Shown here: positions 22,994-64,000 of the stretch, in pieces
Layout: each line of letters begins with the position of its first letter
Numbering within the stretch: position 1 is the first letter of the stretch
Assembly: GCA_902782225.1 (NCBI GenBank)
Contig: CACZMF010000011.1
Coordinates: forward strand, 3,127 to 67,126
Direction: 5' to 3'
Length of the DNA: 64,000 nt
Source of the DNA: an uncultured Bacteroidia bacterium
GTDB taxonomy: Bacteria > Bacteroidota > Bacteroidia > Bacteroidales > UBA932
Made by a program: the position numbers and the translations under genes
Notes under the pieces: model-generated
Told to the model about the DNA's origin: nothing
Seen by the model: only the letters and a program-made list of their open reading frames with translations
The model's database searches: none

Positions 22994-23001
22994 TATTTTT
23001 G
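22994..23001 (+). promoter_or_regulatory. Bacteroidetes -7 promoter box TAttTTTG
   Basis: Exact TAnnTTTG match 18 nt upstream of ATG 23019. It overlaps the track's GTG start at 23001, which argues against that start. Confidence 0.5.
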
Positions 23002-23018
23002 TGGCAGCTAATGACCAT

Positions 23019-30168: not shown

Positions 30169-30251
30169 ATGGAATCTGTTGTCAATTAGAGACTTCTGTC
30201 TCAAAAACCGCGCAATTATAGCGAATAATCTTGATTTAAGCAAGAAATGCT

Positions 30252-30259
30252 TATCTTTG
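30252..30259 (+). promoter_or_regulatory. -7 promoter box TATCTTTG
   Basis: Exact TAnnTTTG match 37 nt upstream of ATG 30296. Confidence 0.45.
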
Positions 30260-30295
30260 AGACACCTAAAAACAGAAGGACCAGTGAAAAAACAG

Positions 30296-45579: not shown

Positions 45580-45594
45580 CGCCGATATTTTTTG

Positions 45595-45602
45595 CAAATA
45601 TA
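45595..45602 (-). promoter_or_regulatory. -7 promoter box TATATTTG (minus strand)
   Basis: Plus strand reads CAAATATA, 16 nt upstream of ATG 45579. Confidence 0.5.
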
Positions 45603-45605
45603 TAC

Positions 45606-45638
45606 ATTTTGGCAATATTTCCAAAAAATTGCCAAAAT
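45606..45638. promoter_or_regulatory. Perfect 11-bp inverted repeat ATTTTGGCAAT-N11-ATTGCCAAAAT (candidate operator)
   Basis: Sits immediately upstream of the -7 box of the NTase-fusion gene, at the position expected for the -33 region. Confidence 0.5.
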
Positions 45639-45720
45639 ATCGGGCGCGCGGCGAGGCGGAGACACCCGTCTTCGAATTCAGGCATGGCGTCGGCAGCGGC
45701 TGAGGCAAACAAGACTCTTT

Positions 45721-46893: not shown

Positions 46894-46898
46894 AGATA

Positions 46899-46906
46899 CA
46901 AAAATA
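46899..46906 (-). promoter_or_regulatory. -7 promoter box TATTTTTG (minus strand)
   Basis: Plus strand reads CAAAAATA. The G is 6 nt from ATG 46893. Confidence 0.45.
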
Positions 46907-46927
46907 TGCAATTATTGTTAATGTTTG

Positions 46928-48565: not shown

Positions 48566-48569
48566 ATCA

Positions 48570-48577
48570 CAAACATA
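48570..48577 (-). promoter_or_regulatory. -7 promoter box TATGTTTG (minus strand)
   Basis: Plus strand reads CAAACATA. The G is 5 nt from ATG 48565. Confidence 0.4.
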
Positions 48578-48718
48578 CGAAAAATATGTGAATAATCTAC
48601 TATTATTTGTTTGAATTTTGCAGGCTAAACTTTTATAAAACAATTATATAGATAAATTATTCATATTTTTTTATCTACTATTTTATCTTTTTTGCATCAT
48701 TATGCGCGCGAGAACAAT

Positions 48719-48726
48719 TATATTTG
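48719..48726 (+). promoter_or_regulatory. -7 promoter box TATATTTG (PUL-3 promoter candidate)
   Basis: Exact match 33 nt upstream of ATG 48759. Confidence 0.5.
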
Positions 48727-48758
48727 CAAAAATCATTATGCTTTTCAATCATCATAAT

Positions 48759-51700
48759 ATGCTTAAGAAAAAACTGTTAACCACACTTGCCACAATGCTT
48801 TGCCTGGCAGTTTCCTTCGGGGCCTTCGCCCAGAAACAGACAGTGCAGGGAGTCGTGACAGATTCCACCGGCCCCGTGATCGGAGCCGTCGTGCAGTCCG
48901 GCGGAGCCAACGCTGTGACTGACCTGGATGGAGCATTCTCCATTTCCGTTCCTTCCGACGCCGTGCTGGAGATTTCAGCCCTCGGCTACAAGACCCTCCG
49001 GGTCCCCGTGGCCGGCCGGACCAGTATCGCCATCACGCTCGAGGAGGACAGCTTCATGCTTGAAGACGCCGTGGCCATCGGTTATGGCACTCAAAAGAAA
49101 ACCAACCTCACAGGCGCAGTCTCCGTTATCAAGTCGGAGGCCCTGCAGGACCGTTCCGCCCTCGACGTGGGACATATGCTGCAGGGTACGGTGCCCGGAC
49201 TCAACGTCACTTCCGGTTCCGGCCGTCCCGGCCAGGCCGCGACGCTGAACATCCGTGGATGGAACTCCATCAACGGCGGCTCCCCGCTGGTCCTTATCGA
49301 CGGCGTGGAAGGTGACATCCAGTACATCAACCCCGTGGACGTGGACAATATTTCCGTCATCAAGGATGCTGCTGCGGCTGCAATCTACGGAGCCAAGGGT
49401 TCCGCCGGTGTGGTGCTTGTGACCACCAAGAGCGGCAGCAAGGAGAAGGACGGACGTGCCAAAGTGACCTACAGCGGCCGTTTCGGCGTCACCGCCCCCA
49501 CCACATCGACGGACTATGAAACCCGCGGCTACGATTCGGTCTATCTGAACAACCTGTTCTGGGCCACCTACAGCCCCGGCACCAAGTACGCCAACTACTC
49601 CGACTACGACATGGAGCAGCTCTGGGCCCGCCGTGGCGACGTGGTGGAGAACCCCGCCCGTCCCTGGGTCGTCATCTCCCAGGAAAACGGCAGGGACGTG
49701 TATAACTATTACGCCAACACCGACTGGTACCATGTCCTCTACAACGACATAAAGCCCACCACCAGCCACTCCGTCTCGATGAGCGGCGGCACCAAGGCCG
49801 TAAGCTATATGGTTTCAGGAGGTTACACCTATGAGCAGGGTATGTTCAAGGACAACCCCGACAACTATAAGCGCGTCAACCTCCGCGCCAAGATTTCCTT
49901 CGACGTGACCGACTGGCTGCGCATCGGCTCCAACACGAGCTACTTCAACAGCTCCTACTTCTATCCCGGCCAGAGCGGCATCAACAACAACTTCGCCAAG
50001 AGTACCGTCCACGCCCTCGCCAGCTACCCCGCCACCAACCCTGACGGCAGCAACGTGTGGGCCACAAAATACAACGGCTACCAGCTCATGGACGGCCTCC
50101 TCATGATCCTTGACGCCGATTTCTTCAACCAGGACAACGTCGACAACATCAGCGAGACCGTGGACTTCACCCTCACTCCCGTGAAGGGCCTTACCGTCAA
50201 GGGCGACTACACCTACACGCTCAAGTACAACCGCTACCTCAACCGCGCCGTGAACGGCACCTATTCCCAGTATCCTATGGAAATGGTGGACAAGTCCGAC
50301 GGCGTGTTCATCGACAAGCTGACCGAGAGCGCCAACACCAACATCTACCAGGCCTACAACCTCTACGCCACCTACCAGAACAGCATTGCCGCCGCCCATA
50401 ACTTCAAGATCATGGCCGGTGTCAACTACGAAACCCGCTGGATCAAGGACCTCGGCCTCGTGGGCTACAACCTCTACTCCACCACCCTCAACGACCAGGA
50501 CCTCGTGGGCGCCGATCCTGCAGATCCCGACGGCAAGAAGCGCATGGAGACCTCCGGCGGCCAGAATGAACTCAAGACCGCAGGCTACTTCACCCGTATC
50601 AACTACGACTACAAGGGCCGCTACCTCCTGGAGCTCAACGCCCGCTACGACGGCTCCTCCCGCTTCCTTCGCGGCAGCCGCTGGGTGTTCTCGCCTTCCG
50701 TCTCCCTCGGATGGAGAGTTTCCGAGGAGCCTTTCTTCGAGCCGCTCAAGACATGGTGGGACAACGCCAAGATCCGCTTCTCCTACGGCCAGCTTGGCAA
50801 CCAGCAGATGAGCAGCTACTATCCTGCCATCCGCACCGTCTCCACCGACGGCAAGTCTTCTTACCTGCTCGGCGGCGCCAATCTGCCCCAGGCCTCCCTG
50901 TCCGCACCGGTGTCTTCCGGCCTCACCTGGGAGCGCTCCATCCAGAGCAACCTCGGCATCGATATGGCGTTCCTCGGCAACCGCCTGGAATTCAGCGCTG
51001 AAGGCTATATCCGCGACACCAAGGACATGCTCACCGCCGGTGAAGCACTGCCCGCAGTCTACGGCGCCTCTTCGCCTAAGGAGAACGTCGCGGACCTCCG
51101 CACCATGGGTTATGAGTTCACGCTGGGCTGGAGGGATTCGTTCAACCTCGGCGCCAAGCCCTTCAACTACGGTGCGAGCGTGGTGTTCAGCGACTATGTG
51201 TCCCACATCACCCGTTTCAACAACCCCGAGAAGCTCTTCGCCAAGACCTACTGGGTGGGCCAGAAATACGGAGACATCTGGGGCTACCATGTGGATGGTC
51301 TCTTCGCCACCGATGAGGAGGCCAAGAGCTACGCCGTGGACCAGTCTAAGGTCAACGACGCCCAAATATTCCCCCAGGGCCTTTTCGCCGGCGACATGAA
51401 GTTCGCCGACCTCGACGGCAACCATGCCATCGACAAGGGTGAGGAGAGAGTAGGCAAGAGCGGCGACTGGCAGGTGATAGGAAACAGTCAGCCCCGCTAC
51501 AACTACGGCGTCAACCTCAACGCTTCCTGGAACGGCTTCGACCTTTCCGTCTTCTTCCAGGGCATAGGTCATATGGACTGGTATCCCGCAGCGGACGCCC
51601 GTTCGTTCTGGTTCCTCTATGCACGTCCCTACCAGACTTTCATCCCGAAGAACTTCCTGAACGACTGCTGGAGCGAGGAGAATCCCAATGCCTACTATCC

Positions 51701-52007
51701 CCGTCCCAGAGGTTACGTGGCAATGAACGCCAACCGTCCCCTGGGTGTGGCCAACGACCGCTACCTCCAGAATATCGGCTACCTGAGGCTCAAGAACCTC
51801 GTGTTCGGCTATACCCTTCCCGAGAAGCTCACCAAGAAAGCATCCATCGCGAAGCTTCGCTTCTACTTCACCGGTGAGAACCTCTTCTATCTGGCTCCCG
51901 GCCTCCACGGCAACTTCGTGGATCCTGAAATGGCAATGACCGGCGGCAACCTCCGCCTGTATCCCTGGCAGAAGAGCTTCATCTTTGGTATCGACATCAC
52001 CCTCTAA
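48759..52007 (+). CDS. SusC/RagA-family TonB-dependent outer-membrane transporter (PUL-3)
   Basis: Track ORF 48702 trimmed to ATG 48759 (MLKKKLLTTLATMLCLAVSFGAFAQ). Motifs VQGVVTDSTGPVIGAVV, AVAIGYGTQKK, ISVIKDAAAAAIYGAKGSAGVVLVTTKSG. C-terminal ..FGIDITL. Close paralog of the SusC-like gene at 5..3340. Confidence 0.95.
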   Translation: MLKKKLLTTLATMLCLAVSFGAFAQKQTVQGVVTDSTGPVIGAVVQSGGANAVTDLDGAFSISVPSDAVLEISALGYKTLRVPVAGRTSIAITLEEDSFMLEDAVAIGYGTQKKTNLTGAVSVIKSEALQDRSALDVGHMLQGTVPGLNVTSGSGRPGQAATLNIRGWNSINGGSPLVLIDGVEGDIQYINPVDVDNISVIKDAAAAAIYGAKGSAGVVLVTTKSGSKEKDGRAKVTYSGRFGVTAPTTSTDYETRGYDSVYLNNLFWATYSPGTKYANYSDYDMEQLWARRGDVVENPARPWVVISQENGRDVYNYYANTDWYHVLYNDIKPTTSHSVSMSGGTKAVSYMVSGGYTYEQGMFKDNPDNYKRVNLRAKISFDVTDWLRIGSNTSYFNSSYFYPGQSGINNNFAKSTVHALASYPATNPDGSNVWATKYNGYQLMDGLLMILDADFFNQDNVDNISETVDFTLTPVKGLTVKGDYTYTLKYNRYLNRAVNGTYSQYPMEMVDKSDGVFIDKLTESANTNIYQAYNLYATYQNSIAAAHNFKIMAGVNYETRWIKDLGLVGYNLYSTTLNDQDLVGADPADPDGKKRMETSGGQNELKTAGYFTRINYDYKGRYLLELNARYDGSSRFLRGSRWVFSPSVSLGWRVSEEPFFEPLKTWWDNAKIRFSYGQLGNQQMSSYYPAIRTVSTDGKSSYLLGGANLPQASLSAPVSSGLTWERSIQSNLGIDMAFLGNRLEFSAEGYIRDTKDMLTAGEALPAVYGASSPKENVADLRTMGYEFTLGWRDSFNLGAKPFNYGASVVFSDYVSHITRFNNPEKLFAKTYWVGQKYGDIWGYHVDGLFATDEEAKSYAVDQSKVNDAQIFPQGLFAGDMKFADLDGNHAIDKGEERVGKSGDWQVIGNSQPRYNYGVNLNASWNGFDLSVFFQGIGHMDWYPAADARSFWFLYARPYQTFIPKNFLNDCWSEENPNAYYPRPRGYVAMNANRPLGVANDRYLQNIGYLRLKNLVFGYTLPEKLTKKASIAKLRFYFTGENLFYLAPGLHGNFVDPEMAMTGGNLRLYPWQKSFIFGIDITL

Positions 52008-53822
52008 ATGAATCCTGCAATGAAAAAGATATTATTCTCCGTTTTGTTGGCACTTGCCGGGTTCGCTTTCACCGGCTGTGACGATCTCCTGGACGCCGTC
52101 CCCAAGGACAGGCTTACCTCGGACACCTTCTTCAAGAGCGAGAGTGAGCTCAAGGCTTTCTCGATCGTGTTCTATGAAGCCTTCCCGGGTTCCGACTTGT
52201 ATGTGGCGAACGACGACCACTACACCCAGAACAACATGTCCACCGAGGGTATGGGCAAGCGCACCATCCCCGCTTCCGGCAGCGGCTGGAGCTGGGGCGC
52301 CCTCCGCAACATCAACACCCTTCTGGAATACCTGCCCAACTGCAAGGATGAAGAGGCCCGCGTCCAGTATGAGGCCCTGGCCCGTTTCTTCCGTGCATAT
52401 TTCTACTTTGCCAAGGTGAAGCGCTTCGGCGACGTGCCCTGGTACGACAAGACTCTCGGCTCCACCGATACCGAACAGCTCTACCGTCCCCGCGACAGCC
52501 GTGAGCTGATAGTGGACAAGATGATGGAAGACCTGGACTTCGCCATCGGGAACCTCCCCACCGCAAAGAGCGCATACGAGGTCACGAAATGGACCGCAAT
52601 GGCCCTCAAGTCCCGTATCCTCCTGTTTGAAGGCACGTTCCGCAAGTATCACGCAGGCGACCCTGCACTCTCCACCCTTCCTGCCGGGGCCAAGCCCTAC
52701 ACCTGGTATCTGGATGAGTGCGCCAAGGTGTCCGGGGAATTCCTCCAGACCAGCGGCTACGGCCTGCATATGGGCAGCGGCAAGGACGGCTATTTCGAGC
52801 TGTTCCACTCCAATGACGCCAGCACCCTCACGGACGAAGTGATCCTCGCACGCAACTACAACAGGGCCTACGGCACCGTCCACAGCGCCGGCAACACCAT
52901 GACCGCCGGTTCCATGGGATGCCCCGCCATGACCAAGAAACTGGTTGCGAGCTACCTCTGCAAGGACGGCTCCCGCTTCACCGACAAGTCCGGCTGGGAG
53001 AAGATGACCTTCGCCGAGGAGACCAAGGACCGCGATCCCCGCTTGGCAATGTCAATCCGCACTCCCGGCTACAAGCGTATGGGAGAGAGCACACCCACGG
53101 CTCCCGACCTGAAGGTGTCCTTCACGGGCTACCATCCGGACAAGTACGTCACCACCCTCGACCAGGACCAGTACAACAACTGTGACGTCGACCTCATCGT
53201 GTTCCGCGCAGCCGAGGTCTATCTCAACTATGCGGAAGCCCTTGCCGAGGCAGGCAAGATCACCCAGGCCGACCTGGACGCCACTATCAACAAGCTGCGC
53301 GACCGCGCCGGCATGCCCGGCCTCGACCTTGCGGCCGCCAACGGCAACCCCGACCCGTTCCTGACCAATCCCGCATACGGCGGATACACCTCTTCCGTGC
53401 TCCAGTCCGACCCCAACAAGGGTGTCATCCTCGAGATACGCCGCGAGCGCGCCATAGAGCTGTGCCAGGAAGGCCACCGCTACTACGACCTTATGCGCTG
53501 GAAGGAAGGCAAGGTCTTCGAGGCTCCTTTCTACGGCATGTACATTCCCGGCGAGGGTGGATTTGACCTCGACGGCGACGGCAAGCTCGATTTCGAGGTG
53601 TTCTCGGCGTCCGCTTCCACCAACGCCCCCGTGGCCAAGAAACTCGGCACCGACGTGTTCCTTTCCGGCGGCACCAGCGGCCTGATACTCCTCCACGGCG
53701 ACATCTCCCGCACCTGGAACGAAAACAGGGATTACCTGTTCCCCATACCCACCGACGACCGCAACCTCACCGGCGGAGCTCTCACCCAGAACCCCGGCTG
53801 GGACGACGGTTTAACATTCTAA
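52008..53822 (+). CDS. SusD/RagB-family outer-membrane lipoprotein (PUL-3)
   Basis: Lipobox ..LAGFAFTGC. Motifs RFFRAYFYFAKVKRFGDVPWYD, VFRAAEVYLNYAEALAEAG, LEIRRERAIELCQEGHRYYDLMRW, TQNPGW. Alternative start 52020. Confidence 0.9.
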   Translation: MNPAMKKILFSVLLALAGFAFTGCDDLLDAVPKDRLTSDTFFKSESELKAFSIVFYEAFPGSDLYVANDDHYTQNNMSTEGMGKRTIPASGSGWSWGALRNINTLLEYLPNCKDEEARVQYEALARFFRAYFYFAKVKRFGDVPWYDKTLGSTDTEQLYRPRDSRELIVDKMMEDLDFAIGNLPTAKSAYEVTKWTAMALKSRILLFEGTFRKYHAGDPALSTLPAGAKPYTWYLDECAKVSGEFLQTSGYGLHMGSGKDGYFELFHSNDASTLTDEVILARNYNRAYGTVHSAGNTMTAGSMGCPAMTKKLVASYLCKDGSRFTDKSGWEKMTFAEETKDRDPRLAMSIRTPGYKRMGESTPTAPDLKVSFTGYHPDKYVTTLDQDQYNNCDVDLIVFRAAEVYLNYAEALAEAGKITQADLDATINKLRDRAGMPGLDLAAANGNPDPFLTNPAYGGYTSSVLQSDPNKGVILEIRRERAIELCQEGHRYYDLMRWKEGKVFEAPFYGMYIPGEGGFDLDGDGKLDFEVFSASASTNAPVAKKLGTDVFLSGGTSGLILLHGDISRTWNENRDYLFPIPTDDRNLTGGALTQNPGWDDGLTF

Positions 53823-53834
53823 TCGCCCGGCACC

Positions 53835-55598
53835 ATGAAGAAAATATTTTCATACCTGATTCTGCTCGCGCTTCCTCTGCTTGTCTTCTCCTGCAGGAGC
53901 AAGGCCCCGGAGACTCCGGTTTCCAAGATGAAGAGCGTTTTATACACCAGCATTCCCGCCTCTTCCGAGGTTATCGAACTGCTCGCCGGCAAGAGCAAGA
54001 CCGTCGACGTGAACGTCTGCGCCGAAGCGGTTTCCGACGTCTACATGACCATGACCTTCAAGGTGGATCCCGAAGCCGTGGCAAGCTACAACAGCAAGAA
54101 CGGCACCAACTACGAGATTCTCCCGTCCTCGGCCTTCACGTTCACGAAGGGTGAAGTCATGCTTCCCCGCTTCAATACGGCGTCCTCCACGGCCAAGCTC
54201 CGCATTGCGGCTGTCGGGCTGGAAGACAACAAGATGTACCTGCTGCCCGTCACGCTGGACAAGGTGACCGGCACCGACAACTGGCAGCTCTCCACCGAGC
54301 CCGTGGCCTACCTGCGCGTCATCCAGGTCAACACCGGCCCCGAGGGCGGCGACGGCTCGGCCGAGTATCCCTACATCCTGGGCACGGTTGACGATCTGCT
54401 CAAGATGGGCGACAGGCTCAGTTCCGAGGAGAAGGTCTATTTCCGCATGACCAACGACATCGACATGTCCGGCGTCAACTGGATTCCCCTCAACGCCGGC
54501 AGTCCCTACGACAAGGAAATCGACTTCGACGGCGCAGGCCACACCATTTCCAACTTCCACTGCGAGTACACCAGCTACCCGAGCTTCTTCGGCGTGCTCA
54601 ACGGCTATTGCCACGACGTCACGTTCAAGGACGCCAGCATCGACTGCAGCGCCGATTCCGGCTGCGGCATCCTCGGCGGCTACGCCGGCACCGGTGCCAT
54701 CCACGCTGAAGTCATGCGCGTCCACGTCCAGGGCCGCGTGACCATGACCGGCAACAAGACCGGCGTCGGCGGCATGTTCGGCACCGTGGCCAATGCCAAT
54801 ATCTGCGCCAGCTCCGCAGACTGCGTGGTCTATTCCGGCAAGAATTACGTCGGCGGCCTCTTCGGCTACTCCAAGAACACCTCCACCGGCACCGGCAACC
54901 ACATCAAGGACTGCTGGGTCGGCGGTGCGGTCAGGGGCGACCAGAGGGTCGGCGGCATCACCGGCGGTATCAACGGCGACAACGACAGCGTCGAGAACTG
55001 CTACTGCATTGCCGAGATGTTCGTCGTCAATCAAGAAGGCAACAAGGAATACGCAGCCACCCGTTCCGTGGGCGGCATCGTGGGCCACTGCAACCAGGAC
55101 AAGGCCGATGCCTGCGACACCCGTATGCCCGGCGATGTCATCAGCGGCTGCATCGCATGGCAGGACGAGATCAAGACCAGGACCGACCTTGGCGACGGCA
55201 CTCCGGCTTCCACCGGAAGCGACTTCTACAGCGCCGGCGCCATCGTGGCCTTCGGCTCCACGCACAACACCTACGCCAACTGCTTCCGCAAGGCCAGCCT
55301 CGATTTCCGCGACTACTGCAGCGCCTTTCTCCTCTATGACCAGGAGAATACTTCTCCCACTTCACCCCTTATGATCAAGAAGGTGGACGGCAGCAACTAC
55401 AACTTCCCTTATCACGGCAAGGCGGCCCCTGCCGGCAAGACCCTTTCCCAGCTCGCCCAGGATCTGGGCTGGAGCCCTGAGATCTGGGACTTCAGCGGCG
55501 AACTGCCCACCATCAGGCCCGACGCCTCATACAATCCTGTCGAGGACACCCACTGCGACGGACAAATCGGTGATTTTGACGACAATAAACTCAACTAA
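53835..55598 (+). CDS. Lipoprotein: DUF1735/BT_3987-like N-domain + GLUG-repeat module
   Basis: Lipobox ..LPLLVFSC. DUF1735-like VASYNSKNGTNYEILPSSAFTF..KMYLLPVTLDKV. Module head YPYILGTVDDLLKM..NDIDMSGVNWIPLN..IDFDGAGHTISNF. G-G-x-x-G turns: VGGMFG, VGGLFGY, VGGITGG, VGGIVGH. Confidence 0.75.
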   Translation: MKKIFSYLILLALPLLVFSCRSKAPETPVSKMKSVLYTSIPASSEVIELLAGKSKTVDVNVCAEAVSDVYMTMTFKVDPEAVASYNSKNGTNYEILPSSAFTFTKGEVMLPRFNTASSTAKLRIAAVGLEDNKMYLLPVTLDKVTGTDNWQLSTEPVAYLRVIQVNTGPEGGDGSAEYPYILGTVDDLLKMGDRLSSEEKVYFRMTNDIDMSGVNWIPLNAGSPYDKEIDFDGAGHTISNFHCEYTSYPSFFGVLNGYCHDVTFKDASIDCSADSGCGILGGYAGTGAIHAEVMRVHVQGRVTMTGNKTGVGGMFGTVANANICASSADCVVYSGKNYVGGLFGYSKNTSTGTGNHIKDCWVGGAVRGDQRVGGITGGINGDNDSVENCYCIAEMFVVNQEGNKEYAATRSVGGIVGHCNQDKADACDTRMPGDVISGCIAWQDEIKTRTDLGDGTPASTGSDFYSAGAIVAFGSTHNTYANCFRKASLDFRDYCSAFLLYDQENTSPTSPLMIKKVDGSNYNFPYHGKAAPAGKTLSQLAQDLGWSPEIWDFSGELPTIRPDASYNPVEDTHCDGQIGDFDDNKLN

Positions 55599-55609: not shown

Positions 55610-57574
55610 ATGAAAACAAAAGTTTATTCCGTTCTTGCACTTGGACTGGTACTGTCCTTGGCTTGCGCATGCAATAAAGAGACCCGCGACCTTCCCGCTC
55701 CCGGGCAGAAGATAAGCGTCAGCGCCTTCCTTCCCGAAGACACCAAAGTCGCCGCCGGCGACAAGGAAGGAGGCATCACCTGGTCGTGGGAAGAGGGCGA
55801 CGCGATAACCCTCGTCGGCAAGACTTCCTCCACGCTTTCCATCGACCCGGGATTCACCGCGAAGAAGGCCACCTTCTCCGGAAAACCCGTGTCGGGCGAC
55901 AGCTTCTCCATCATTTATCCCGCCATGGCCTCAGTGTCGGCCATGGATGCCATCACTTTCGACACCCAGGTGCAGGCGAGCACCGACTCGAAGGCTCACC
56001 TTCAGTACTTTGCCCTGCTCCAAGACATCAAGTCCTACAGCAGCTTCGAGTTCAGCCCTTCGTGGGCGGCGTCCAACGGCGCCTCGTTCAAGCAGGGCGG
56101 CGTGCTGAAAATCGTGGCGTCGCTTCCTGCCGAGACCACAATGGTGACCAAGCTCGCGATCAAGGCATCGGCCCCCGTGTTCCATGCCGACAACGGTGAT
56201 ACCATGACCGACGCCCTCGCCGTCACCTTCGAGGAATCCGCCCTTCCGGAGAGCAAGACCCTGGTCGCCTGGTTCACCACTTCCTGGCACGACACCGCGA
56301 TTCCTGCCGGCACCACCATCCAGTTCACTGCCGCCGCAGGAGACTTCACCTGGCTCAGCGACCTCAGCATTCCTGCCGAAAAGGTGATTAAGTCCGGCTG
56401 CGTCAACGTCATCGAGCTGCCTGCCTCCGTGTGGTACAACACCGGCCGCTACAGCGGCGGCGCAGGCACTGCGGCGAGCCCCTGGATCATCACCAAGCCC
56501 GAGCAGATGAACTTCATCAAGGAAGACCTGGTGGCGGGAGACATCCGTTACTTCAAACTGGGCGCCGACATCGATATGTCCGGCATTACCGGCTGGGAGC
56601 CTCTCAACTACGCCAGCCCCTATGACAAGCAGATCGACTTCGACGGCGCAGACCACACCATCTCCGGCTTCACCTGCGATTATCCCAGCTATCCGAGCTT
56701 CTTCGGCGTGCTCTATGGAGCCTGCCGCAACGTCAATTTCGTGAACGCCGTGATCAACTGCTCCAACAACACCGGCTGCGGTATCATCGGCGGCTACGGC
56801 GGCACCGGCGACAAGCACGCCGACGTGTTCCGTGTCCACGTGCAGGGCGAAGTCAACTTCACCGGCAACAAGACCGGTATCGGCGGTATGTTCGGCCAGC
56901 TTGCCAACGCAAGCCTGAATGCCTGCTCGGCAGATGTCAACGTCACTTCCGGCAAGAACTACGTCGGCGGCCTTTGCGGCTACATCGGAGCCAGCACCGT
57001 CTCCGTCGAGAACTGCTGGACCAGCGGCTCCGTGGCGGGCAACCAGAGGGCCGGCGGCATCACCGGCGGCGTGATCAAGGAAGGCTCCGTGATACGCAAC
57101 TGCTACTCCCTCTCCGCAGTCAGCGCCAACTTCTGCATCGCCGGTATCGCAGGCCACTGCAACCTCGACCAGAAGAGCGGCAATCCCGACGTGAGCACTC
57201 CCGGCAACGTGATCGAGAAGTGCATCGCCTGGAACGAGTCCATCAAGGCGAACTCCGTGACCGAGGGCGACAAGAGCCACTACAGCGGCGGCGCCATCGC
57301 AGGCTACACCTCGATGAAAAACACCCTTGCCGACTGTATGCGCAAGGCCGACCTCGTGTTCGTGGAGTACTCCGACCTCTTCGGCCTCTACGACCAGGAG
57401 AACGCCTCCGCCGCGACGCCTCTGGTGGTCAACGCAGTCGAAGGTGCCACCTATAATTATCCATATCACGGCAAAACTGCAGCTGCCGGCGCCACCCTCA
57501 GCCAGGTCGCACAGGCCCTCGGCTGGCCGGCCGACATCTGGGACTTCAGCGGCAGCGTTCCTGTCCTTAAATAA
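55610..57574 (+). CDS. Lipoprotein: fimbrillin-like N-module + GLUG-repeat module
   Basis: Lipobox ..LSLACAC. Module head SPWIITKPEQMNFI..ADIDMSGITGWEPLN..IDFDGADHTISGF. Turns: IGGMFG, VGGLCGY, AGGITGG, IAGIAGH. Paralog of 53835, 58635 and 61709. Confidence 0.75.
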   Translation: MKTKVYSVLALGLVLSLACACNKETRDLPAPGQKISVSAFLPEDTKVAAGDKEGGITWSWEEGDAITLVGKTSSTLSIDPGFTAKKATFSGKPVSGDSFSIIYPAMASVSAMDAITFDTQVQASTDSKAHLQYFALLQDIKSYSSFEFSPSWAASNGASFKQGGVLKIVASLPAETTMVTKLAIKASAPVFHADNGDTMTDALAVTFEESALPESKTLVAWFTTSWHDTAIPAGTTIQFTAAAGDFTWLSDLSIPAEKVIKSGCVNVIELPASVWYNTGRYSGGAGTAASPWIITKPEQMNFIKEDLVAGDIRYFKLGADIDMSGITGWEPLNYASPYDKQIDFDGADHTISGFTCDYPSYPSFFGVLYGACRNVNFVNAVINCSNNTGCGIIGGYGGTGDKHADVFRVHVQGEVNFTGNKTGIGGMFGQLANASLNACSADVNVTSGKNYVGGLCGYIGASTVSVENCWTSGSVAGNQRAGGITGGVIKEGSVIRNCYSLSAVSANFCIAGIAGHCNLDQKSGNPDVSTPGNVIEKCIAWNESIKANSVTEGDKSHYSGGAIAGYTSMKNTLADCMRKADLVFVEYSDLFGLYDQENASAATPLVVNAVEGATYNYPYHGKTAAAGATLSQVAQALGWPADIWDFSGSVPVLK

Positions 57575-57583: not shown

Positions 57584-58630
57584 ATGAAGAAAGGATTGAC
57601 ATATTCATGGGCGATAATCCTCTGCCTGCTGGCTTTTTCCTGCAAGAAGCCGTCGGGCCCGGACCTGCCTCCGCCCACCCCGTCCGGCCAAAGCGACAAC
57701 CAGGGCGGACAGAACAACAACCAGGGCACTGATCCCGACACCCCCCAGGAGTCTCACCCATGGGATGCCAATCGTGGTAAATACGTAGTTCCCACAGGCG
57801 ACGGGTGGTCCAGGGCCACCGTCGCCGCGGGGATTACATATTACTCTTTCTCGGGCACGGAATCAGTCTCCAAGGCCAAGCAGCGCATCTATGTGGCCGA
57901 CATCGACATGTCTTCCGACAAGTATCAGCTCGGCCTGGTGTATCATTCCGACCGCCGCACCACTTCGCAGGTGTTCACGGAGGAGAAAGCCATCATCTCC
58001 ATGAACGGCGGCTACGAGCAGCCATCCATCGTGATCAAGATCGGCGGAATCTACAAGTCCGCCATGCCCAACAACTTCATAGGCGACACGGACGTCCCCA
58101 ACTGGAAAAACGAAGGCGCGCTGTATTTCAGCGACGGCACCGACCCCCGCATCCGTTTCGACGGCAAGGGCAAGAGCGTCACCGCACAGCGCAGCTTCTA
58201 CTATTCCAGCAAGGAGCCCAACATCCTGACCAGCGCACCCATGCTGATCAATGATTTCGAGCCGGTAGGGGAGACCTTCGTCAGCTACACCGGCAACCTC
58301 AACTCCCTCAATTACGAAGATCCCAGGCGCCATCAGGGCGTCCGCCATCCCCGCACAGCCATAGCCACCACCGAGAACAACCATCTGCTGATGGTCGTCA
58401 TAGACGGCAGGCGCTCTGGCGTGAGCGAGGGAATGACCGCCAGGGAAGTCACCGGCTTCCTTGTCCAAAACTTCAACCCCCAGTATGCCCTGAATCTCGA
58501 CGGCGGAGGCTCTTCGACCCTCTGTGTCGCAGGCCTGGGCGACAAGACCACCCACGTGGTCAACAAGCCCACGGATTCCGAGGGAGAGCGTTCCGTGACA
58601 ACCCATCTGTTTATTATTCCGAAGAAATAG
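57584..58630 (+). CDS. Phosphodiester glycosidase family lipoprotein (NAGPA-like), copy 2
   Basis: MKKGLTYSWAIILCLLAFSC. Motifs HPRTAIATTENNHLLMVVIDGRR and ALNLDGGGSSTLCV. Paralog of the C-terminal domain of the next gene. Confidence 0.8.
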   Translation: MKKGLTYSWAIILCLLAFSCKKPSGPDLPPPTPSGQSDNQGGQNNNQGTDPDTPQESHPWDANRGKYVVPTGDGWSRATVAAGITYYSFSGTESVSKAKQRIYVADIDMSSDKYQLGLVYHSDRRTTSQVFTEEKAIISMNGGYEQPSIVIKIGGIYKSAMPNNFIGDTDVPNWKNEGALYFSDGTDPRIRFDGKGKSVTAQRSFYYSSKEPNILTSAPMLINDFEPVGETFVSYTGNLNSLNYEDPRRHQGVRHPRTAIATTENNHLLMVVIDGRRSGVSEGMTAREVTGFLVQNFNPQYALNLDGGGSSTLCVAGLGDKTTHVVNKPTDSEGERSVTTHLFIIPKK

Positions 58631-58634
58631 AGTC

Positions 58635-61559
58635 ATGACAAAGATTTTCAATAGTTTACTCCTTCCGCTGGCGGCCACGGCCCTCCTTGCGGCCTGCGTG
58701 AAAGAGGCGCCTGCCCCGGAGCGGCAGCGCGAAATGGTCACCGTCACCGCTTCCGTCCCCGAAGCCACCAAGGTCGCCTTCGAGGATGCCGCCGACAACG
58801 GCCTGTCCCTTTCCTGGGAAGACGGAGACTGCCTCCGCATCATTTCCGGCAGCGAGTCCGGACGGTACGACATCCTCGACGATTTCGAAGAGCACAAGGC
58901 CAGGTTCCGCGGCCCTGAAGTGACGGGAGAAAAGTACAACATCCTCTATCCGGGCACTTTCGAGAGCGTGGAAGAGGCGGCGGAATTCGACTTTGCCGGC
59001 CAGGTGCAGAACGGCAACGACAACAAGGACCACCTGCGCTACATCACCCTCCTGGAAGGTGTGGACACCAAGGAAGACATCTGTTTCTCCGATGAGTGGG
59101 CCGCCGCCCACGGCGGAATATGCAGGCAGAGCGGCGTGGTGAAGTTCATCCTCACCCTGCCCTCCGGACTGACCCAGCCCCGCAAGGTGCGGCTGTCCGG
59201 ACTGGACAAGGACATCGTCCTTGCCATCAAGAACGTCAACCTCAGCTCCAACCATGTGCTCACCGCTTATGCCGTGACTCCCTGGAACGATATCCCCATC
59301 TCTTCCGGCACCGACCTCACCGTCACCGTCTCGGATGCGCAGGGAGCAACCTGGAGCCGCAATATCACCGTCAACAAGGAGACAGCCATCGGCGCGGGCA
59401 AGCAGAGCGTGTTCCGCCTGACGCAGGGCTTCGAGGAGACCCTCTTCGCCGGAGGCTCCGGCACCCAGAACGACCCGTACCTCATCTCCGGAGCCAGGCA
59501 TCTCTACAATATGCACGCAGACGGTATCCTGGAGCAGGGCAAGAAGACCTATTTCCTCATGACTGAAGACGTCGACATGTCCGTCATCTCCGAGCCCTGG
59601 GTACCCCTCAACAACGTGAATCCCTACGGCTGCGAAGTCGATTTCGACGGCAGCGGCCACACCATCGACAACTTCACCTGCTCCGACACCGACCACTGCC
59701 CCGGTTTCTTCACCGTGCTGTTCGGCGACGTCCACAACGTCCGCTTCACCAATGCCGACGTTAAGAAGACCAACGACAACACCGGACATCCCTGCGGTAT
59801 CCTCGGTGGTTACGGCGGATACGCCAGCTGCCCGTCAAGGGTCTGGGACGTCCACGTCCAGGGTACGGTCACTTCCACGGCGGTCAACGGCGTGGGCGGA
59901 ATGTTCGGGCGCATCAACGCCATCGACATCGAATCCTGCTCGGCAGACGTCAATGTCACGAGCAAGGGAGGCGGCAGGTCCGGCCTGGTGGGCGGTATCT
60001 TCGGTTACGACACCGGCGCAGTGACCGTGCGTAACTGCTGGACTTCAGGCATCATCAGAGGATCCGACAAGGTGGGCGGCATCGGCGGTGCCTTCATCAA
60101 GGCCGAATCCTCCATGTATAACTGCTACTCGATTGCCGAAGTCAACGGTTCCTTCCAGTATGCCGGAATCCTGGGCCATGCCAACCTCGACCAGAAGGCC
60201 AACAACGACACCAACACCCCCGACAACCACATCGAAAGGTGCATCGCCTGGAACTCCGCCGTCCAGACCATCACGACCGACTCCGGCGAGCACTACAGCA
60301 GCGGCGCCATTATAGGCTACACCGCCCAGAAGAATTATCTTTCCGACTGCTTCCGCAGGAGCGACCTCAGTTTCACCGAGTGCCCCGGGAATATAGACCG
60401 CGGCTACGGCATTACGGACCAGGAAAACGCCAGCCCTTCGAAGCCTCTCGTGCGCCAGTCCTCCAACACCTACGATTTTGCCTACCACGGCAAGGCCGCC
60501 GCAGCGGGCAGGACACTCTCCCAGGTTGCTCAGAGCCTCGGCTGGAATGCCACCATCTGGGATTTCAGCGGCCCTGTTCCCCAGCTCACCGGTGAGGCGA
60601 TATTCGTGGACAACGCCCAGGAAAGCGGCGCCGCAAATGCTCCCACAGGCAGCAATCCCAGGCCCGGAGAGGGCGAGATACGTCCTTCCGCCGGAGGCGG
60701 CTGGACCGTGAAAAGCATAGTGCCGGGAGTCACCTATTATGCCTTCGACGGCGTGGACAGCTATTCGGGATATGTGCAGCAGGTGTTCGTGATCGACTTC
60801 GATCTCAGCAGCACCCAGTACAAGCTCCAGTTCGTGTATGAGAATCCTTCCCTGGTCAATTCCGAAGTGTTCTCCAAGTACAACGCAATCGCTTCCATCA
60901 ACTGCGGTTATGAAATGTCTTCCATCGTCTACAAGTACGACGGCATTGGCAAGGCCTACATTCCCAACAACACCATCACCGACACCGGTGTGGCCAACTG
61001 GAAGAACGAAGGCGCCTTCTACTTCGACGGCAACCGCACCGCGAAGATCAGTGCCGACGGTTATGGCCTCTCCATCAGCGAGCAGCGCAAGTACTACATG
61101 TACAATACCTCCGAGTGGCCCAATATCGTGTCCAGCGCCCCCGTGCTAATCAACGACTGGAGCCCCATAGGCGAGACATTCACCCAGCGTTACAACATCG
61201 GCGGCCCGTCCGAGTCTCCGAGGGTCCACCAGAACAGCACGCACCCCCGTACTGCAGTCGCACTCACAGAGGGCAACCACCTGCTGATGGTGGCCGTGGA
61301 CGGACGCTATGACGCTTCCGGCTTCAGTATCGGCATGAGCGCCAAGCAGCTCACCAGGTTCCTCGTGACCCACTTCAATCCCCGCTGGGCCCTCAACCTC
61401 GACGGCGGCGGTTCCACCACCATGTGCGTCCAGGGAGAAGGTGACGCTACGACTCACGTCGTCAACTATCCTTGTGACAACGTCAAGAGCAAGGGCCTGC
61501 CTCACGACCATGCCGGCGAGCGCGCCCGTGATACCCACCTTGTCATCGTAGCCAGATAA
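58635..61559 (+). CDS. Tripartite lipoprotein: fimbrillin-like N-module + GLUG-repeat module + C-terminal phosphodiester glycosidase (NAGPA-like) domain
   Basis: Lipobox ..TALLAAC. Module head DPYLISGARHLYNM..EDVDMSVISEPWVPLN..VDFDGSGHTIDNF. Turns: VGGMFG, VGGIFGY, VGGIGGA. The C-terminal 297 aa (about 60666-61556) carry HPRTAVALTEGNHLLMVAVDGR and ALNLDGGGSTTMCV. Confidence 0.8.
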   Translation: MTKIFNSLLLPLAATALLAACVKEAPAPERQREMVTVTASVPEATKVAFEDAADNGLSLSWEDGDCLRIISGSESGRYDILDDFEEHKARFRGPEVTGEKYNILYPGTFESVEEAAEFDFAGQVQNGNDNKDHLRYITLLEGVDTKEDICFSDEWAAAHGGICRQSGVVKFILTLPSGLTQPRKVRLSGLDKDIVLAIKNVNLSSNHVLTAYAVTPWNDIPISSGTDLTVTVSDAQGATWSRNITVNKETAIGAGKQSVFRLTQGFEETLFAGGSGTQNDPYLISGARHLYNMHADGILEQGKKTYFLMTEDVDMSVISEPWVPLNNVNPYGCEVDFDGSGHTIDNFTCSDTDHCPGFFTVLFGDVHNVRFTNADVKKTNDNTGHPCGILGGYGGYASCPSRVWDVHVQGTVTSTAVNGVGGMFGRINAIDIESCSADVNVTSKGGGRSGLVGGIFGYDTGAVTVRNCWTSGIIRGSDKVGGIGGAFIKAESSMYNCYSIAEVNGSFQYAGILGHANLDQKANNDTNTPDNHIERCIAWNSAVQTITTDSGEHYSSGAIIGYTAQKNYLSDCFRRSDLSFTECPGNIDRGYGITDQENASPSKPLVRQSSNTYDFAYHGKAAAAGRTLSQVAQSLGWNATIWDFSGPVPQLTGEAIFVDNAQESGAANAPTGSNPRPGEGEIRPSAGGGWTVKSIVPGVTYYAFDGVDSYSGYVQQVFVIDFDLSSTQYKLQFVYENPSLVNSEVFSKYNAIASINCGYEMSSIVYKYDGIGKAYIPNNTITDTGVANWKNEGAFYFDGNRTAKISADGYGLSISEQRKYYMYNTSEWPNIVSSAPVLINDWSPIGETFTQRYNIGGPSESPRVHQNSTHPRTAVALTEGNHLLMVAVDGRYDASGFSIGMSAKQLTRFLVTHFNPRWALNLDGGGSTTMCVQGEGDATTHVVNYPCDNVKSKGLPHDHAGERARDTHLVIVAR

Positions 61560-61570: not shown

Positions 61571-61705
61571 ATGAATAAGAAATACCAGACTCCCAGTATC
61601 AGCATCGACAGTGAGCTGTACCTCGCAGGCCTTCTGGCCGCTTCTTCCGACGGATCGCTGGAGGACATGTCCGGCGAAGTCATATTCGATGATTTAACTG
61701 CCTGA
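61571..61705 (+). CDS. Unannotated 44-codon ORF (MNKKYQTPSISIDSELYLAGLLAASSDGSLEDMSGEVIFDDLTA)
   Basis: Found by hand translation; it is below the track's length cut-off. It fills the only sizeable gap (149 nt) in an otherwise tightly packed gene row. No signal peptide. Coding status unproven. Confidence 0.3.
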   Translation: MNKKYQTPSISIDSELYLAGLLAASSDGSLEDMSGEVIFDDLTA

Positions 61706-61708: not shown

Positions 61709-64000
61709 ATGAATAGGTTTGCAGCGATTATCACTTTCCTGGCCGCGCTGTCCGTCCTCGTGTCGCCTTCCTGCAAGAAGGCCGTGGACACCCCGCAGGC
61801 CGGGCCCCAAGTGACCATACGTGCCTGTGTGCCCGATGACGCCACGAAAGTGGCCCTCACCCCCAGCGGCGACGGCCTCCACCTCGCCTGGGAAGCGGGT
61901 GATGCCCTCCGTGTCATCTCCGGCTCTCAGTCGGAGCAGTTTGCCATCAAGGATGGCTTCACCGACCATGAGGCATCGTTCACCGGAACTGCCGTGAGCG
62001 GCACTTCCTTCGATATCATCTATCCCGGGACCTTCGCTTCCGTGGCTGAAGCCGAAGCTTCCGATTTCAGCTATCAGGAGCAGGACGGCAACGGCAGCAC
62101 CGCGCATCTGCGCTATGCGGCCCTGCTGAGCGGTGTCGATGACTACACCGATATCGCCTTCACGCAGGAATGGGCTTCGGCCCACGGCGGCGCCATCAAG
62201 CGTGCGGGTGCCATCAAGATGGACCTCACGCTCCCCGCCGGCGTGACCACGGTCACCGGAGTGGACGTGGACCTTGCCGGCCGTGCGCTCGCCCTCGGGC
62301 TGAAGAACGTGGACGTGTCCCAGAGCGCCCAGGTGCTCACCGCCTACCTTATGACCCCGTGGGAGGATATGGAACTTGCCGCCGGGTCCAAGGTGGAAAT
62401 AAAGGTGACCGCCTCCGATGACGCCTGCTACGGCATCAGCTTCAGCCTGGCTGAGGCCAGGACCCTCAAGGCCGGGCACGTCAGCGTGTTCAAGGTACCC
62501 AACAACATCGAGGAGTACCGGTTCGCCGGCGGCAGCGGCACCGAGGCCGATCCCTGGCTCATAGCCAACGCCCGCCAGCTCAGGAACATGATGACCCTCT
62601 ACGCCGATGCCGAGGCTCCCGCCGACAAGAACTCCTTCAAGAAGTGGTTCCGCCTCACTAAAGACATCGACGCCTCCTCCATCAGCTCCTGGACCCCGCT
62701 CAACAACAGCGGCAGCTTCTACAAGGCAATCGATTTCGACGGCGACAGCCACACCATTTCCGGGCTTAAGCCCACGGGCACCTATGCCAGTTTCGTGGGA
62801 GTGCTGTACGGAACTATTCGTAACGTCACCTTCGACGGCGTCACGATCAACGTGGGCAACGTCAAGACCGGCGTAGTGGCCGGCTTCCTCGGCACGGACG
62901 GCCTTCCCGGCTACTGCGAGAACGTGGTGGTCAAGAACTCTTCCGTGACTTCCACCAGCTATGCCGGAGGCTTTGCCGGGCACATACGCAACATCGGCAC
63001 CGTCACGGGATGCTCCGTCGTCAACACCACCGTGAGCACGATCGGCTACGCCGGTGGTTTTGCCGCCTATGCGGACCTTGGCTCCGGCGACAAGTATGAA
63101 GTCCCCTGCATCTTCACCGACTGCCACGTGTCCGACGTCACCGTGAACCAGAATTACACTTCTGCAGGAGAAAGGTACACCGGCGGCTTCATCGGCTGCG
63201 CGGCCCAGACGCAGACTTTCAAGGACTGCACCGTCAAGGCCACGGTCAACGCCACCAAGGCCGCGATCCAGGACGTCGGCGGCTTCATCGGCCGCGACTC
63301 CTATGCCGGCGCCAATTTCAATGGATGCCAGGTGCTTGACGGCACCGTGGTCAATGCGATGGGCGCCCACGTCGGCGGCTTCATCGGCTATTCCGAGGTG
63401 GCGGCGTCGTATATCGACTGCTCCTCTGCCGCGGCAGTCAACAATTCTGCCGAATACACCGGCGGCTTTGCCGGTTTTGCCTGCGGCGCTTCTTCCTACA
63501 CGCGCTGCAGCGCCAGCGGCAATGTGTCCGGCAACCTGTATGTCGGCGGTTTCGCCGGCCAGGCCGAGAATGCCAGCTTCAACGACTGCAGCTACAGCCA
63601 GGGCACCGTCTCCGGCAGCGGCACGACCAAGTACACCCTCACGGCAGGCTTCTGCGGCTATGCCACCAGCGGGCTCTCGTTCAACGACTGCTCCGTGAGC
63701 GGAGCCACCGTTTCTGCCGAAAGGGGCCAGCGCATCGGCGGCTTCGTGGGCCAGCTGGGCTCGTCCTACACCAGTTTGAACAACATCTCGCTTGCCGGGT
63801 GCAACGTCAGCGACACCCAGGTGACCGGCGGCACTAACACCGGCGGCTTCGTGGGCGTGCAGTACGACAATATCAGCCGCTGTTATGTTTCCGGCGGCAG
63901 CGTCACTGCCAAGAATGCCCATTGCGGCGGTTTCGCCGGATTCGCGCAGCAGGGAAGCGCCACCAACTGCTATACGACGGCTGAGGTCATCGGCGGAAGC
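61709..64000 (+). CDS. Lipoprotein: fimbrillin-like N-module + long GLUG-repeat region (5' partial; runs off the window end)
   Basis: Not in the ORF track, because there is no stop inside the window. Hand translation from ATG 61709: MNRFAAIITFLAALSVLVSPSC.. Module head DPWLIANARQLRNM..KDIDASSISSWTPLN..IDFDGDSHTISGL. At least 10 turns: YAGGFAGH, YTGGFIGC, VGGFIGR, VGGFIGY, YTGGFAGF, YVGGFAGQ, IGGFVGQ, TGGFVGV, CGGFAGF. Clear paralog of 55610 and 58635. Confidence 0.85.
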   Translation, partial: MNRFAAIITFLAALSVLVSPSCKKAVDTPQAGPQVTIRACVPDDATKVALTPSGDGLHLAWEAGDALRVISGSQSEQFAIKDGFTDHEASFTGTAVSGTSFDIIYPGTFASVAEAEASDFSYQEQDGNGSTAHLRYAALLSGVDDYTDIAFTQEWASAHGGAIKRAGAIKMDLTLPAGVTTVTGVDVDLAGRALALGLKNVDVSQSAQVLTAYLMTPWEDMELAAGSKVEIKVTASDDACYGISFSLAEARTLKAGHVSVFKVPNNIEEYRFAGGSGTEADPWLIANARQLRNMMTLYADAEAPADKNSFKKWFRLTKDIDASSISSWTPLNNSGSFYKAIDFDGDSHTISGLKPTGTYASFVGVLYGTIRNVTFDGVTINVGNVKTGVVAGFLGTDGLPGYCENVVVKNSSVTSTSYAGGFAGHIRNIGTVTGCSVVNTTVSTIGYAGGFAAYADLGSGDKYEVPCIFTDCHVSDVTVNQNYTSAGERYTGGFIGCAAQTQTFKDCTVKATVNATKAAIQDVGGFIGRDSYAGANFNGCQVLDGTVVNAMGAHVGGFIGYSEVAASYIDCSSAAAVNNSAEYTGGFAGFACGASSYTRCSASGNVSGNLYVGGFAGQAENASFNDCSYSQGTVSGSGTTKYTLTAGFCGYATSGLSFNDCSVSGATVSAERGQRIGGFVGQLGSSYTSLNNISLAGCNVSDTQVTGGTNTGGFVGVQYDNISRCYVSGGSVTAKNAHCGGFAGFAQQGSATNCYTTAEVIGGS

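Follow-up and report, generated by a model that had tools for sequence, protein, structure and literature searches.

We analysed a 64,000-nt stretch of DNA from an uncultured Bacteroidia bacterium (lineage UBA932 of the Bacteroidales; assembly GCA_902782225.1, contig CACZMF010000011.1, positions 3,127 to 67,126 of the forward strand), hereafter called the window. The subject of this work is a pair of neighbouring genes in its 3' part. The first encodes a free phosphodiester glycosidase of the NAGPA family (57584-58630, + strand), a lipoprotein of 348 aa when read from its ATG and of 350 aa if the upstream TTG at 57578 is used. The second encodes a 974-aa fusion lipoprotein (58635-61559, + strand), a continuous open reading frame (ORF) without internal stop, in which a paralogous NAGPA domain is joined to a GLUG-like beta-helix module. 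Both genes lie behind a SusC/SusD pair, and by this pair, the adjacent regulator and the lipoprotein layout the locus is a Bacteroidota polysaccharide utilisation locus (PUL), though one in which no carbohydrate-active enzyme (CAZyme) was recognised by Pfam.

The locus is compact, with gaps of 0-12 nt between its genes. A SusR-like regulator (46928-48643, - strand; DUF6377/SusR_C at 1.7e-58, with TPR) is divergent from it, and orthologs stand at the equal position in sister loci (E = 1e-116 to 1e-159); the ortholog in one of these, L004 in our set, matches the NCBIfam model SusR_regulator at 7e-107, under the equivalog cut-off. Next to the regulator, and on the same strand, lies a calcineurin-like, purple-acid-phosphatase-like phosphoesterase with a signal peptide (45721-46911; Metallophos 6.1e-17, Pur_ac_phosph_N 4.6e-6), which has a weak PDB match to the purple acid phosphatase 6GIT. 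The SusC-like TonB-dependent transporter (48702-52007, +; Plug, TonB_dep_Rec_b-barrel and CarbopepD_reg_2 domains) is followed with a gap of 0 nt by the SusD-like protein (52008-53822, +; SusD_RagB 1.3e-49). Behind SusD stand five co-oriented lipoprotein genes, spaced 3-12 nt apart, whose products from the first onward all bear a lipoprotein-type signal peptide.

The first of these, lipoprotein A (53835-55598, +), takes the SusE/F position and combines a DUF1735 spacer (BT_3987-like N-terminal domain; PF08522, 1.2e-15) with a GLUG-like module that scores 435 bits with a custom module hidden Markov model (HMM); its lipobox reads LVFSC. A 2024 survey (PMC11216935) describes DUF1735 plus GLUG as a rare and uncharacterised architecture, found in 0.8% of DUF1735 proteins, and lipoprotein A is of this type. 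Lipoprotein B (55610-57574, +) joins an N-terminal fimbrillin/Ig-like domain to a GLUG-like module and is a paralogue of residues 23-651 of the fusion. The free NAGPA and the fusion come next, then a conserved 44-aa small ORF (61571-61705, +; containing DGSLEDMSGEVIFDDLTA) that is called as a gene on an ENA contig, and then a lipoprotein with an N-terminal domain and true Pfam GLUG repeats (61709-64000, +; Glug 8.3e-18), of whose 1086 aa the window holds the 5' part. The full gene can be read on a longer ENA contig (L001, 13075-16335), where it ends in a C-terminal GDSL esterase (Lipase_GDSL). Pfam detected no glycoside hydrolase or lyase domain in the locus proteins, and the GDSL esterase and the NAGPA domains are, by the same searches, the sole candidate glycan-active enzymes at the locus. 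NCBIfam models gave nothing useful for A, B, the free NAGPA or the fusion.

Both NAGPA copies are members of PF09992 by HMM score and by motif. At 91.7 bits (E = 7.8e-26) for the free domain and 71.1 bits (E = 1.7e-19) for the fused one, both lie above the curated gathering threshold of 25 bits, and the family is matched in 28 of 28 full-length fusion homologues. The DGGGS loop is present in each (D306-S310 at nt 58499-58513 of the free copy; D923-S927 at nt 61401-61415 of the fusion) and is kept in 105 of 107 related NAGPA domains. According to the 2026 structural study of human NAGPA (PMC13474241), this loop (D286-S290) is strictly invariant from bacteria to man and holds the sugar-1-phosphate, mutation of its first aspartate (D286) kills activity, and R316 is the phosphate-binding arginine. 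A GER arginine follows the loop in both copies, and an HPRTA motif was also found for the free copy. Residue R336 of the free copy lies 30 residues past the loop aspartate, a spacing equal to that from D286 to R316 in the human enzyme, and by position rather than by alignment it may be the counterpart of R316.

The two copies are paralogous. BLASTP aligned residues 27-347 of the free protein with residues 643-974 of the fusion at 152/335 identities (45%) and 61% positives (E = 3e-88), and over trimmed alignment columns the two domains are 52% identical. The initial annotation had proposed this paralogy from the letters of the window; its coordinates and strand for both ORFs are correct, and every peptide pair that it quoted is present in the pairwise alignment. 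It had set the fused region at nt ~60666-61556, whereas the alignment extends slightly farther, over nt ~60561-61556. The free copy has its own lipobox (LAFSC) and a long low-complexity tether (residues ~21-70).

Searches against solved structures returned a bacterial relative and the vertebrate enzyme. The closest solved bacterial relative of both is BACOVA_00430 of Bacteroides ovatus (PDB 3OHG), a DUF2233 structural-genomics protein that the free copy matches by sequence at 4e-8 (phmmer) and the AlphaFold2 model of the fusion matches at 2e-10 (Foldseek). It is single-domain like the free copy, only its C-terminal ~100 residues align by sequence, and our searches turned up no account of its function, of any fusion or of its locus. 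Vertebrate NAGPA, the 'uncovering enzyme' (PDB 6PKU, 6PKI and 6U11; human cryo-electron microscopy structure in PMC13474241), is matched by the free copy at 6e-3 (6PKI) and by the fusion model at ~1e-9 (6PKU/6PKI), and Foldseek gave a probability of 1.00 for the matches of the fusion model to 3OHG and 6PKU/6PKI. Vertebrate and bacterial proteins share the Pfam family, the fold as judged from the predicted model, and the invariant DGGGS with its catalytic aspartate, and by analogy the same chemistry would be expected, namely hydrolysis of the glycosidic bond of a sugar-1-phosphodiester. In contrast, identity is below 20%, the locus copies lack the propeptide, EGF stalk and transmembrane anchor, and the enzyme appears here as a bacterial lipoprotein, free or tethered to a beta-helix, in a nutrient-uptake locus.

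The fusion is built of five parts: a signal peptide with lipobox (58635-58697, +), an N-terminal beta-sandwich (58701-59420, +), the GLUG-like beta-helix module (59436-60587, +), a conserved linker (60588-60686, +) and the NAGPA domain (60687-61556, +). In Foldseek its first ~260 residues weakly resemble beta-sandwich proteins of the fimbrial or 'cell adhesion' kind (Mfa3, 7.6e-3; BF1858, 2.3e-2). Residues 270-490 are homologous to BACOVA_03286 (PDB 3N6Z; phmmer E = 2e-24), and the model of the fusion matches the same entry with a Foldseek E of 1.2e-16 and a target-normalised template modelling score of 0.72. At the level of fold, the model also resembles the GLUG-bearing, N-terminal part of pneumococcal IgA1 protease (PDB 6XJA and 6XJB) at about 1e-4 (5.6e-5 for 6XJA). 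The fusion differs from these proteins in having no peptidase domain and in placing the module between a lipidated stalk and an enzyme domain.

The name GLUG, which had been applied to this part of the protein from the outset, holds at the level of the family, given 3N6Z and the homologues, but not for the window protein itself. Even at a lax threshold, PF07581 (Pfam GLUG) gave no hit in the fusion or B and no significant one in A, which reached 7.9 bits (E = 6.4) against a gathering threshold of 20.5 bits. The model is passed (E ≤ 0.01) by 6 of the 28 full-length fusion homologues, by both of the reverse-order fusions described below, and by the downstream gene that begins at 61709. The middle part of the fusion is therefore a GLUG-type beta-helix module by homology, and not by the Pfam threshold on the window sequence.

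As a surface lipoprotein of 974 aa, the fusion is real, old and conserved. The same protein was found, identical, on an ENA rumen metagenome scaffold and in an independent Logan assembly, and no stop codon interrupts the ORF near 60600, the site at which the initial annotation had thought resequencing might undo the fusion. Clustering at the 90% identity level gave ~35 full-length clusters, 965-1108 aa long and 38-99% identical to the fusion, of which the 99%-identical one comprises 40 member sequences. Linker residues L651, T652, S664, G665, P684 and G687 are invariant in the alignment of the 28 full-length homologues. In the AlphaFold2 model, which has a mean predicted local distance difference test (pLDDT) of 85.5 and a predicted template modelling score (pTM) of 0.76, the linker reaches a pLDDT of 74-92. 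We also ran an exhaustive profile search with the fusion against 1.84 billion representatives and inspected the best 150 matches. Among these, module and NAGPA occur in a single chain in 22 clusters at 50% identity (9 with N-terminal domain, module and NAGPA; 11 with module and NAGPA; 1 with NAGPA before the module; 1 mixed), and elsewhere the two are encoded by adjacent genes, so that the co-occurrence in other genomes on which the proposed link had been made to depend is indeed observed.

The fusion has an unfused counterpart immediately upstream. Lipoprotein B aligns with residues 23-651 of the fusion at 41% identity over 650 aa (BLASTP E = 4e-143), and the free NAGPA with residues 643-974, so that this gene pair is colinear with the whole of the fusion gene that follows it. 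Lipoprotein B ends in WDFSGSVPVLK at its stop codon where the fusion runs on through WDFSGPVPQL-TGEAIF into the linker. The same module-end motif, WDxSGxxPxL, also marks the junction between GLUG repeats and GDSL esterase in the gene at 61709, where WDLSGSLPQL is followed by LASSGSIPAIFVGDS. Neither the colinear pair nor the SusC/SusD setting had figured in the initial annotation.

Related loci were gathered from contigs that encode relatives of B and by scanning species-representative genomes with the fusion alignment, and all ORFs of the resulting 80 loci were scored with custom HMMs of each of the fusion's three parts. The locus is present in many uncultured Bacteroidales, mostly from the guts of cattle, buffalo, yak, sheep, goat, deer and horse; several carriers are labelled Candidatus Cryptobacteroides, and a few human-gut genomes carry it too. 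The gene order A, B, free NAGPA, fusion was seen in at least 13 distinct genomes. Other arrangements are a fusion lacking its free counterpart (L045), the trio A, B and free NAGPA with no fusion (several loci), and an A-type gene followed only by free NAGPA (Bacteroides sp. CAG:709, a Muribaculaceae metagenome-assembled genome (MAG) and others). Module and NAGPA occur only as separate adjacent genes in L031, L033-L035, L057, L058 and L064. In L022 and L028 the gene at the position of the fusion lacks NAGPA; the L022 module is nearest to an A-type module, so that these genes are probably not decayed fusions. The reverse order, NAGPA then GLUG in one ORF, was found twice, once in a Paludibacter MAG (L079) and once in Bacteroides vicugnae A2-P53, a cultured strain (L080). 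The B. vicugnae locus consists of an ECF sigma factor, an anti-sigma factor, SusC, SusD, NAGPA::GLUG and a free NAGPA, so that here too a fused and a free NAGPA stand together right after SusD.

A neighbour-joining tree of 107 NAGPA domains with 200 bootstraps placed all 16 fusions of N-terminal domain, module and NAGPA in one clade (200/200), nested among free NAGPA copies that adjoin module genes. The two reverse-order fusions formed a distant clade (200/200) and grouped with the forward fusions in 0/200 replicates, which indicates at least two independent fusion events. Since the orthologues are now only ~40% identical, the window-type fusion is older than the divergence of the genomes that carry it. 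Among free NAGPA genes, 48 of 62 have a module gene immediately upstream, in a sample that is biased, the loci having been ranked by how similar they are to the fusion as a whole. A control is provided by a further NAGPA paralogue of the window, a lipoprotein of a different subfamily (24945-25943, - strand; PF09992, 1.7e-33): neither this gene nor five related loci has a match to the module or the N-terminal domain within 6 kb, and within the window such modules are confined to the locus of the fusion. This shows that the association is specific to the NAGPA subfamily of the fusion.

The content of the sister loci extends the set of associated enzymes. There the genes 3' of the free NAGPA encode a free GDSL esterase (~253-254 aa), the fusion, a small ORF, a transporter of the major facilitator superfamily (MFS), a ~725-aa NAGPA protein and an EEP-family protein. 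The free GDSL esterase is homologous to the scaffold-fused GDSL domain of the window lineage (E = 1e-50 to 1e-84; 5.5e-69 for the gene at 61709), and at least 13 distinct loci encode it as a separate gene and at least 16 as part of a fusion, so that one scaffold bears two enzymes unrelated to each other. The ~725-aa proteins owe their additional ~400 aa, missed by Pfam, to a MINPP-type histidine acid phosphatase (HAP; PDB 7R5Y at 1.2e-35, 4FDT at 3e-22). In 27 non-redundant proteins of ~705-760 aa such a phosphatase is fused on either side of NAGPA, behind an ordinary secretory signal and not a lipobox. NAGPA would strip the sugar and leave a phosphomonoester from which the phosphatase would strip the phosphate, which makes the NAGPA::HAP fusion chemically sensible. 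Fusions of this kind, all outside the window, occur in L003-L008, L010, L020, L022, L028, L030, L032, L036, L043, L045-L051, L055 and L056, and also in L060, L061, L063, L065, L068, L069 and L075. In L055, which comes from the same MAG as L016, the HAP::NAGPA gene adjoins an ortholog (E = 1e-220) of the window phosphoesterase at 45721-46911.

The MFS transporter of the sister loci is of the organophosphate:phosphate antiporter (OPA) type, matching the PgtP, GlpT, UhpC and UhpT models at 5e-66 to 5e-47, under their equivalog cut-offs. Two candidate assignments in these loci were rejected. The ~725-aa protein had been considered as a third NAGPA fused to a module, on the basis of tblastn over residues 274-974, but the matches came from adjacent A-type and NAGPA genes and the proteins are NAGPA::HAP. 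The EEP enzyme was considered as a relative of a solved sugar phosphatase and had no PDB sequence match. In one further rumen MAG contig (L037, 389-5823), four NAGPA genes stand in tandem, three free and one NAGPA::HAP, a strong expansion of the family.

From these observations we propose, with a probability of roughly 60%, that the fusion is a surface PUL lipoprotein whose stalk and module carry a catalytically intact NAGPA domain, which would serve as an 'uncovering' phosphodiester glycosidase in the harvest of glycans that contain sugar-1-phosphate diesters. We infer what class of substrate is attacked, that the module serves in binding, in which order the steps run and in which compartments. 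The target would be a glycan or glycopolymer with sugar-1-phosphate diesters, for example teichoic-acid-like or capsular polymers or phosphoglycans of other rumen and gut microbes. A, B and the module part of the fusion would hold or present the polymer at the cell surface, the module serving as a reusable binding or presentation scaffold and not as a specific partner of NAGPA, while the GLUG::GDSL esterase would clear away acyl groups that stand in the way. Both NAGPA domains, free and tethered, would hydrolyse the glycosidic C1-O-P bond; cleavage of backbone diesters would depolymerise the polymer, and cleavage of branch diesters would leave 'uncovered' phosphomonoesters. Fragments would be imported through SusC/SusD, and phosphoesterases would act last: in this genome the purple-acid-phosphatase-like enzyme, and in the sister loci a periplasmic NAGPA::HAP and the EEP enzyme, together with the GlpT/UhpT-type organophosphate antiporter. 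Retention of both NAGPA paralogues since before the genomes diverged implies a division of labour; oligomers may, for instance, be left to the free copy and polymer to the tethered one, or the two may differ in specificity.

One caveat concerns the domain-fusion argument with which the locus was originally interpreted. Inference of functional linkage from such 'Rosetta-stone' fusions is said to go back to work by Marcotte and by Enright, both in 1999. As in such cases, the parts are fused in some genomes and separate in others, here with two independent fusions; the present case differs in that fused and unfused versions stand side by side in one operon and in that one partner is promiscuous, a known caveat. 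The inference expects neither component to be promiscuous, and here the module also bears a GDSL esterase in the same locus, and NAGPA is joined elsewhere to a histidine acid phosphatase. The strict case for a specific pairwise interaction is thereby weakened, and the evidence for a shared substrate comes mainly from the conserved operon. The functional link between the module and the phosphodiester glycosidase, as claimed in the initial annotation, is nevertheless supported, and more strongly than was proposed there, by the operon, the colinear pair of B and free NAGPA, the single clade of the fused domains, the second fusion in reverse order, the module genes directly before 48 of the 62 free copies and the control subfamily.

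The points that weigh against the proposal concern the pathway, the substrate and the history. Genes for HAP::NAGPA, the OPA transporter and the EEP enzyme were absent from the locus both in the window and in L001, and from the 4.7 kb farther on in the closest long contig; with the window lineage lacking these three genes in the locus over that range, the proposed pathway is partly borrowed from the sister loci. The literature searched reports no substrate for bacterial PF09992 proteins, and the residues E226/T227, on which the GlcNAc specificity of vertebrate NAGPA depends, could not be aligned to the NAGPA domains of the locus. No recognised endo-acting glycanase was found at the locus, so one of the modules may be catalytic instead of binding. 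Finally, colinearity suggests that the pair of B and NAGPA may have been duplicated as a unit, but the module tree lends this no support: the fusion modules form a clade (190/200), the modules of A, B and the fusion are about equidistant, and B and fusion modules do not come out as sister clades.

The main rival, which we consider unlikely, takes up the lack of a recognised glycoside hydrolase or lyase at the locus and makes the GLUG-like module itself an enzyme, such as an endo-glycanase, lyase or phosphodiesterase, so that the fusion would be bifunctional and A and B would be the missing depolymerases. The beta-helix fold is frequent among enzymes that act on polysaccharides. Across 75 modules from all three contexts, a set of polar and aromatic residues (D312, D314, N326, R574, D595, Q596, Y617, H618, W637, W642 and D643) is kept in more than 90%, and DUF1735, the spacer of lipoprotein A, is thought to serve a functional C-terminal head (PMC11216935). 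Against this, the conserved positions of the module are mostly glycine or cysteine, as is typical of a structural solenoid, and the nearest structure, 3N6Z, has no demonstrated catalytic activity. We likewise know of no demonstrated catalytic activity for the N-terminal domain of pneumococcal IgA1 protease. With the fusion profile, 20,902 relatives were found at E ≤ 1e-10; the best-scoring among them mostly match the module alone, including giant multi-repeat proteins of adhesin-like character. A scaffold that bears two unrelated enzymes suits the role of carrier better.

It is also improbable, in our view, that the link is a physical complex in which the free NAGPA would dock on lipoprotein B or A as the fused domain does on its own module. 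The colinearity of B and free NAGPA with the fusion and the placement of the free copy, almost always behind a module gene, speak for docking, and the pTM of the predicted model and its well-ordered linker suggest a defined arrangement of domains. However, a lipid anchor of its own and a long tether would already co-localise the free copy at the membrane without docking, and the promiscuity of the module weakens the logic of a specific partner.

A third view, that the locus acts on proteins or glycoproteins in the manner of IgA1 protease with NAGPA in a minor part, is highly improbable. It draws on the name of the nearest PDB entry of the module, 'putative immunoglobulin A1 protease', and on the fold match to part of the pneumococcal enzyme, but this match covers a non-protease part. 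Neither an HExxH metalloprotease motif nor a peptidase domain was detected in the five locus proteins searched, and the 'protease' name of 3N6Z thus does not transfer. The conserved partners are instead phosphoesterases, an esterase and an organophosphate antiporter. As for an assembly or frameshift artefact joining two genes, its chance is practically negligible given the exact protein on independent contigs, homologues that are full length down to 38% identity, the conserved linker and the monophyly of the fused NAGPA domains.

Returning to the preferred reading of a phosphodiester-glycan harvesting locus, what is new here is that the usual spacer-plus-head plan of PULs is combined with an unusual enzyme class and scaffold. 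Known lipoproteins in the SusE/F position, with DUF1735 or BACON spacers as in BT3987 and BoGH5A (PMC11216935), share the lipid anchor, the Ig-like spacer, the functional domain and the place just after susD. They differ in their heads, which in the present locus are a GLUG-like beta-helix with NAGPA or GDSL esterase and not a CAZy glycoside hydrolase or a known carbohydrate-binding module. The literature searched contains no characterisation of the fusion, in agreement with the initial annotation, nor of PF09992 enzymes from bacterial PULs, nor of any PUL directed at phosphodiester-linked glycopolymers; it assigns no role to the GLUG-type module or to bacterial NAGPA/DUF2233 proteins. Databases already label the protein with the name 'phosphodiester glycosidase family protein'. 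More tentatively, and at less than even odds, this could be the first PUL with NAGPA-type enzymes as its key surface activities, a 'phosphoglycan / teichoic-acid utilisation locus' in which the GLUG-type beta-helix would be a polyanion-binding platform and the NAGPA::HAP fusions, the EEP enzyme and the GlpT/UhpT-type antiporter would complete the pathway.

If true, rumen and gut Bacteroidales would feed on the cell envelopes of other microbes by taking up their phosphodiester-bridged polymers, and cross-feeding on microbial cell walls could take this route in the rumen. PUL biology would gain a new enzyme class, and bacterial PF09992 proteins and a large family of GLUG-like modules a first physiological role. 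By itself the fusion is a matter of annotation, and the conserved phosphate-centred locus is what offers a testable entry to the function of bacterial NAGPA-family proteins; Bacteroides vicugnae A2-P53 is a cultured strain with a related locus open to study.

The small ORF downstream of the fusion belongs to a family of its own. It has no Pfam match, and homologues precede module-type genes in L009, L010, L016, L019, L036 and L045. Members are 40-49 aa long, without signal peptide, and follow the pattern M-[KN]-x-x-Y-x-x-P ... S-x-D-G-[ST]-L-E-D-M-[SP]-G-[ED]-x-[IV]-[FY]-[DN]-[DE]. Each lies just 5' of a gene for a GLUG-like lipoprotein or HAP::NAGPA, at positions 12925 in L019, 12959 and 19549 in L016, 4270 and 13245 in L009, 10031 and 15555 in L045, 10873 in L010 and 15386 in L036.

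Elsewhere in the window, a protein with DUF6577 and a nucleotidyltransferase domain lies just outside the locus (44809-45708, - strand), and a DNA/RNA non-specific endonuclease farther upstream (30047-31156, + strand; Endonuclease_NS 6.8e-50). The GC content steps at ~24 kb, from 0.51-0.55 (1-24000) to 0.58-0.64 (24000-64000), and by coordinate arithmetic the independent ENA contig with the identical locus ends at ~24,129 of the window. The boundary marks the margin of a genomic island or of a strain-variable region, or else a chimeric join made in the source assembly. On the far side of it (5-23954, + strand) lie two more SusC/SusD loci in which no glycoside hydrolase was recognisable. They carry BACON proteins, PQQ-type beta-propellers and a DUF6528 protein, as well as a calcineurin-like phosphoesterase (11011-12678), a xylose-isomerase-like TIM barrel (19730-21283) and an EEP-family protein (23001-23954), and they may also deal with phosphorylated substrates.

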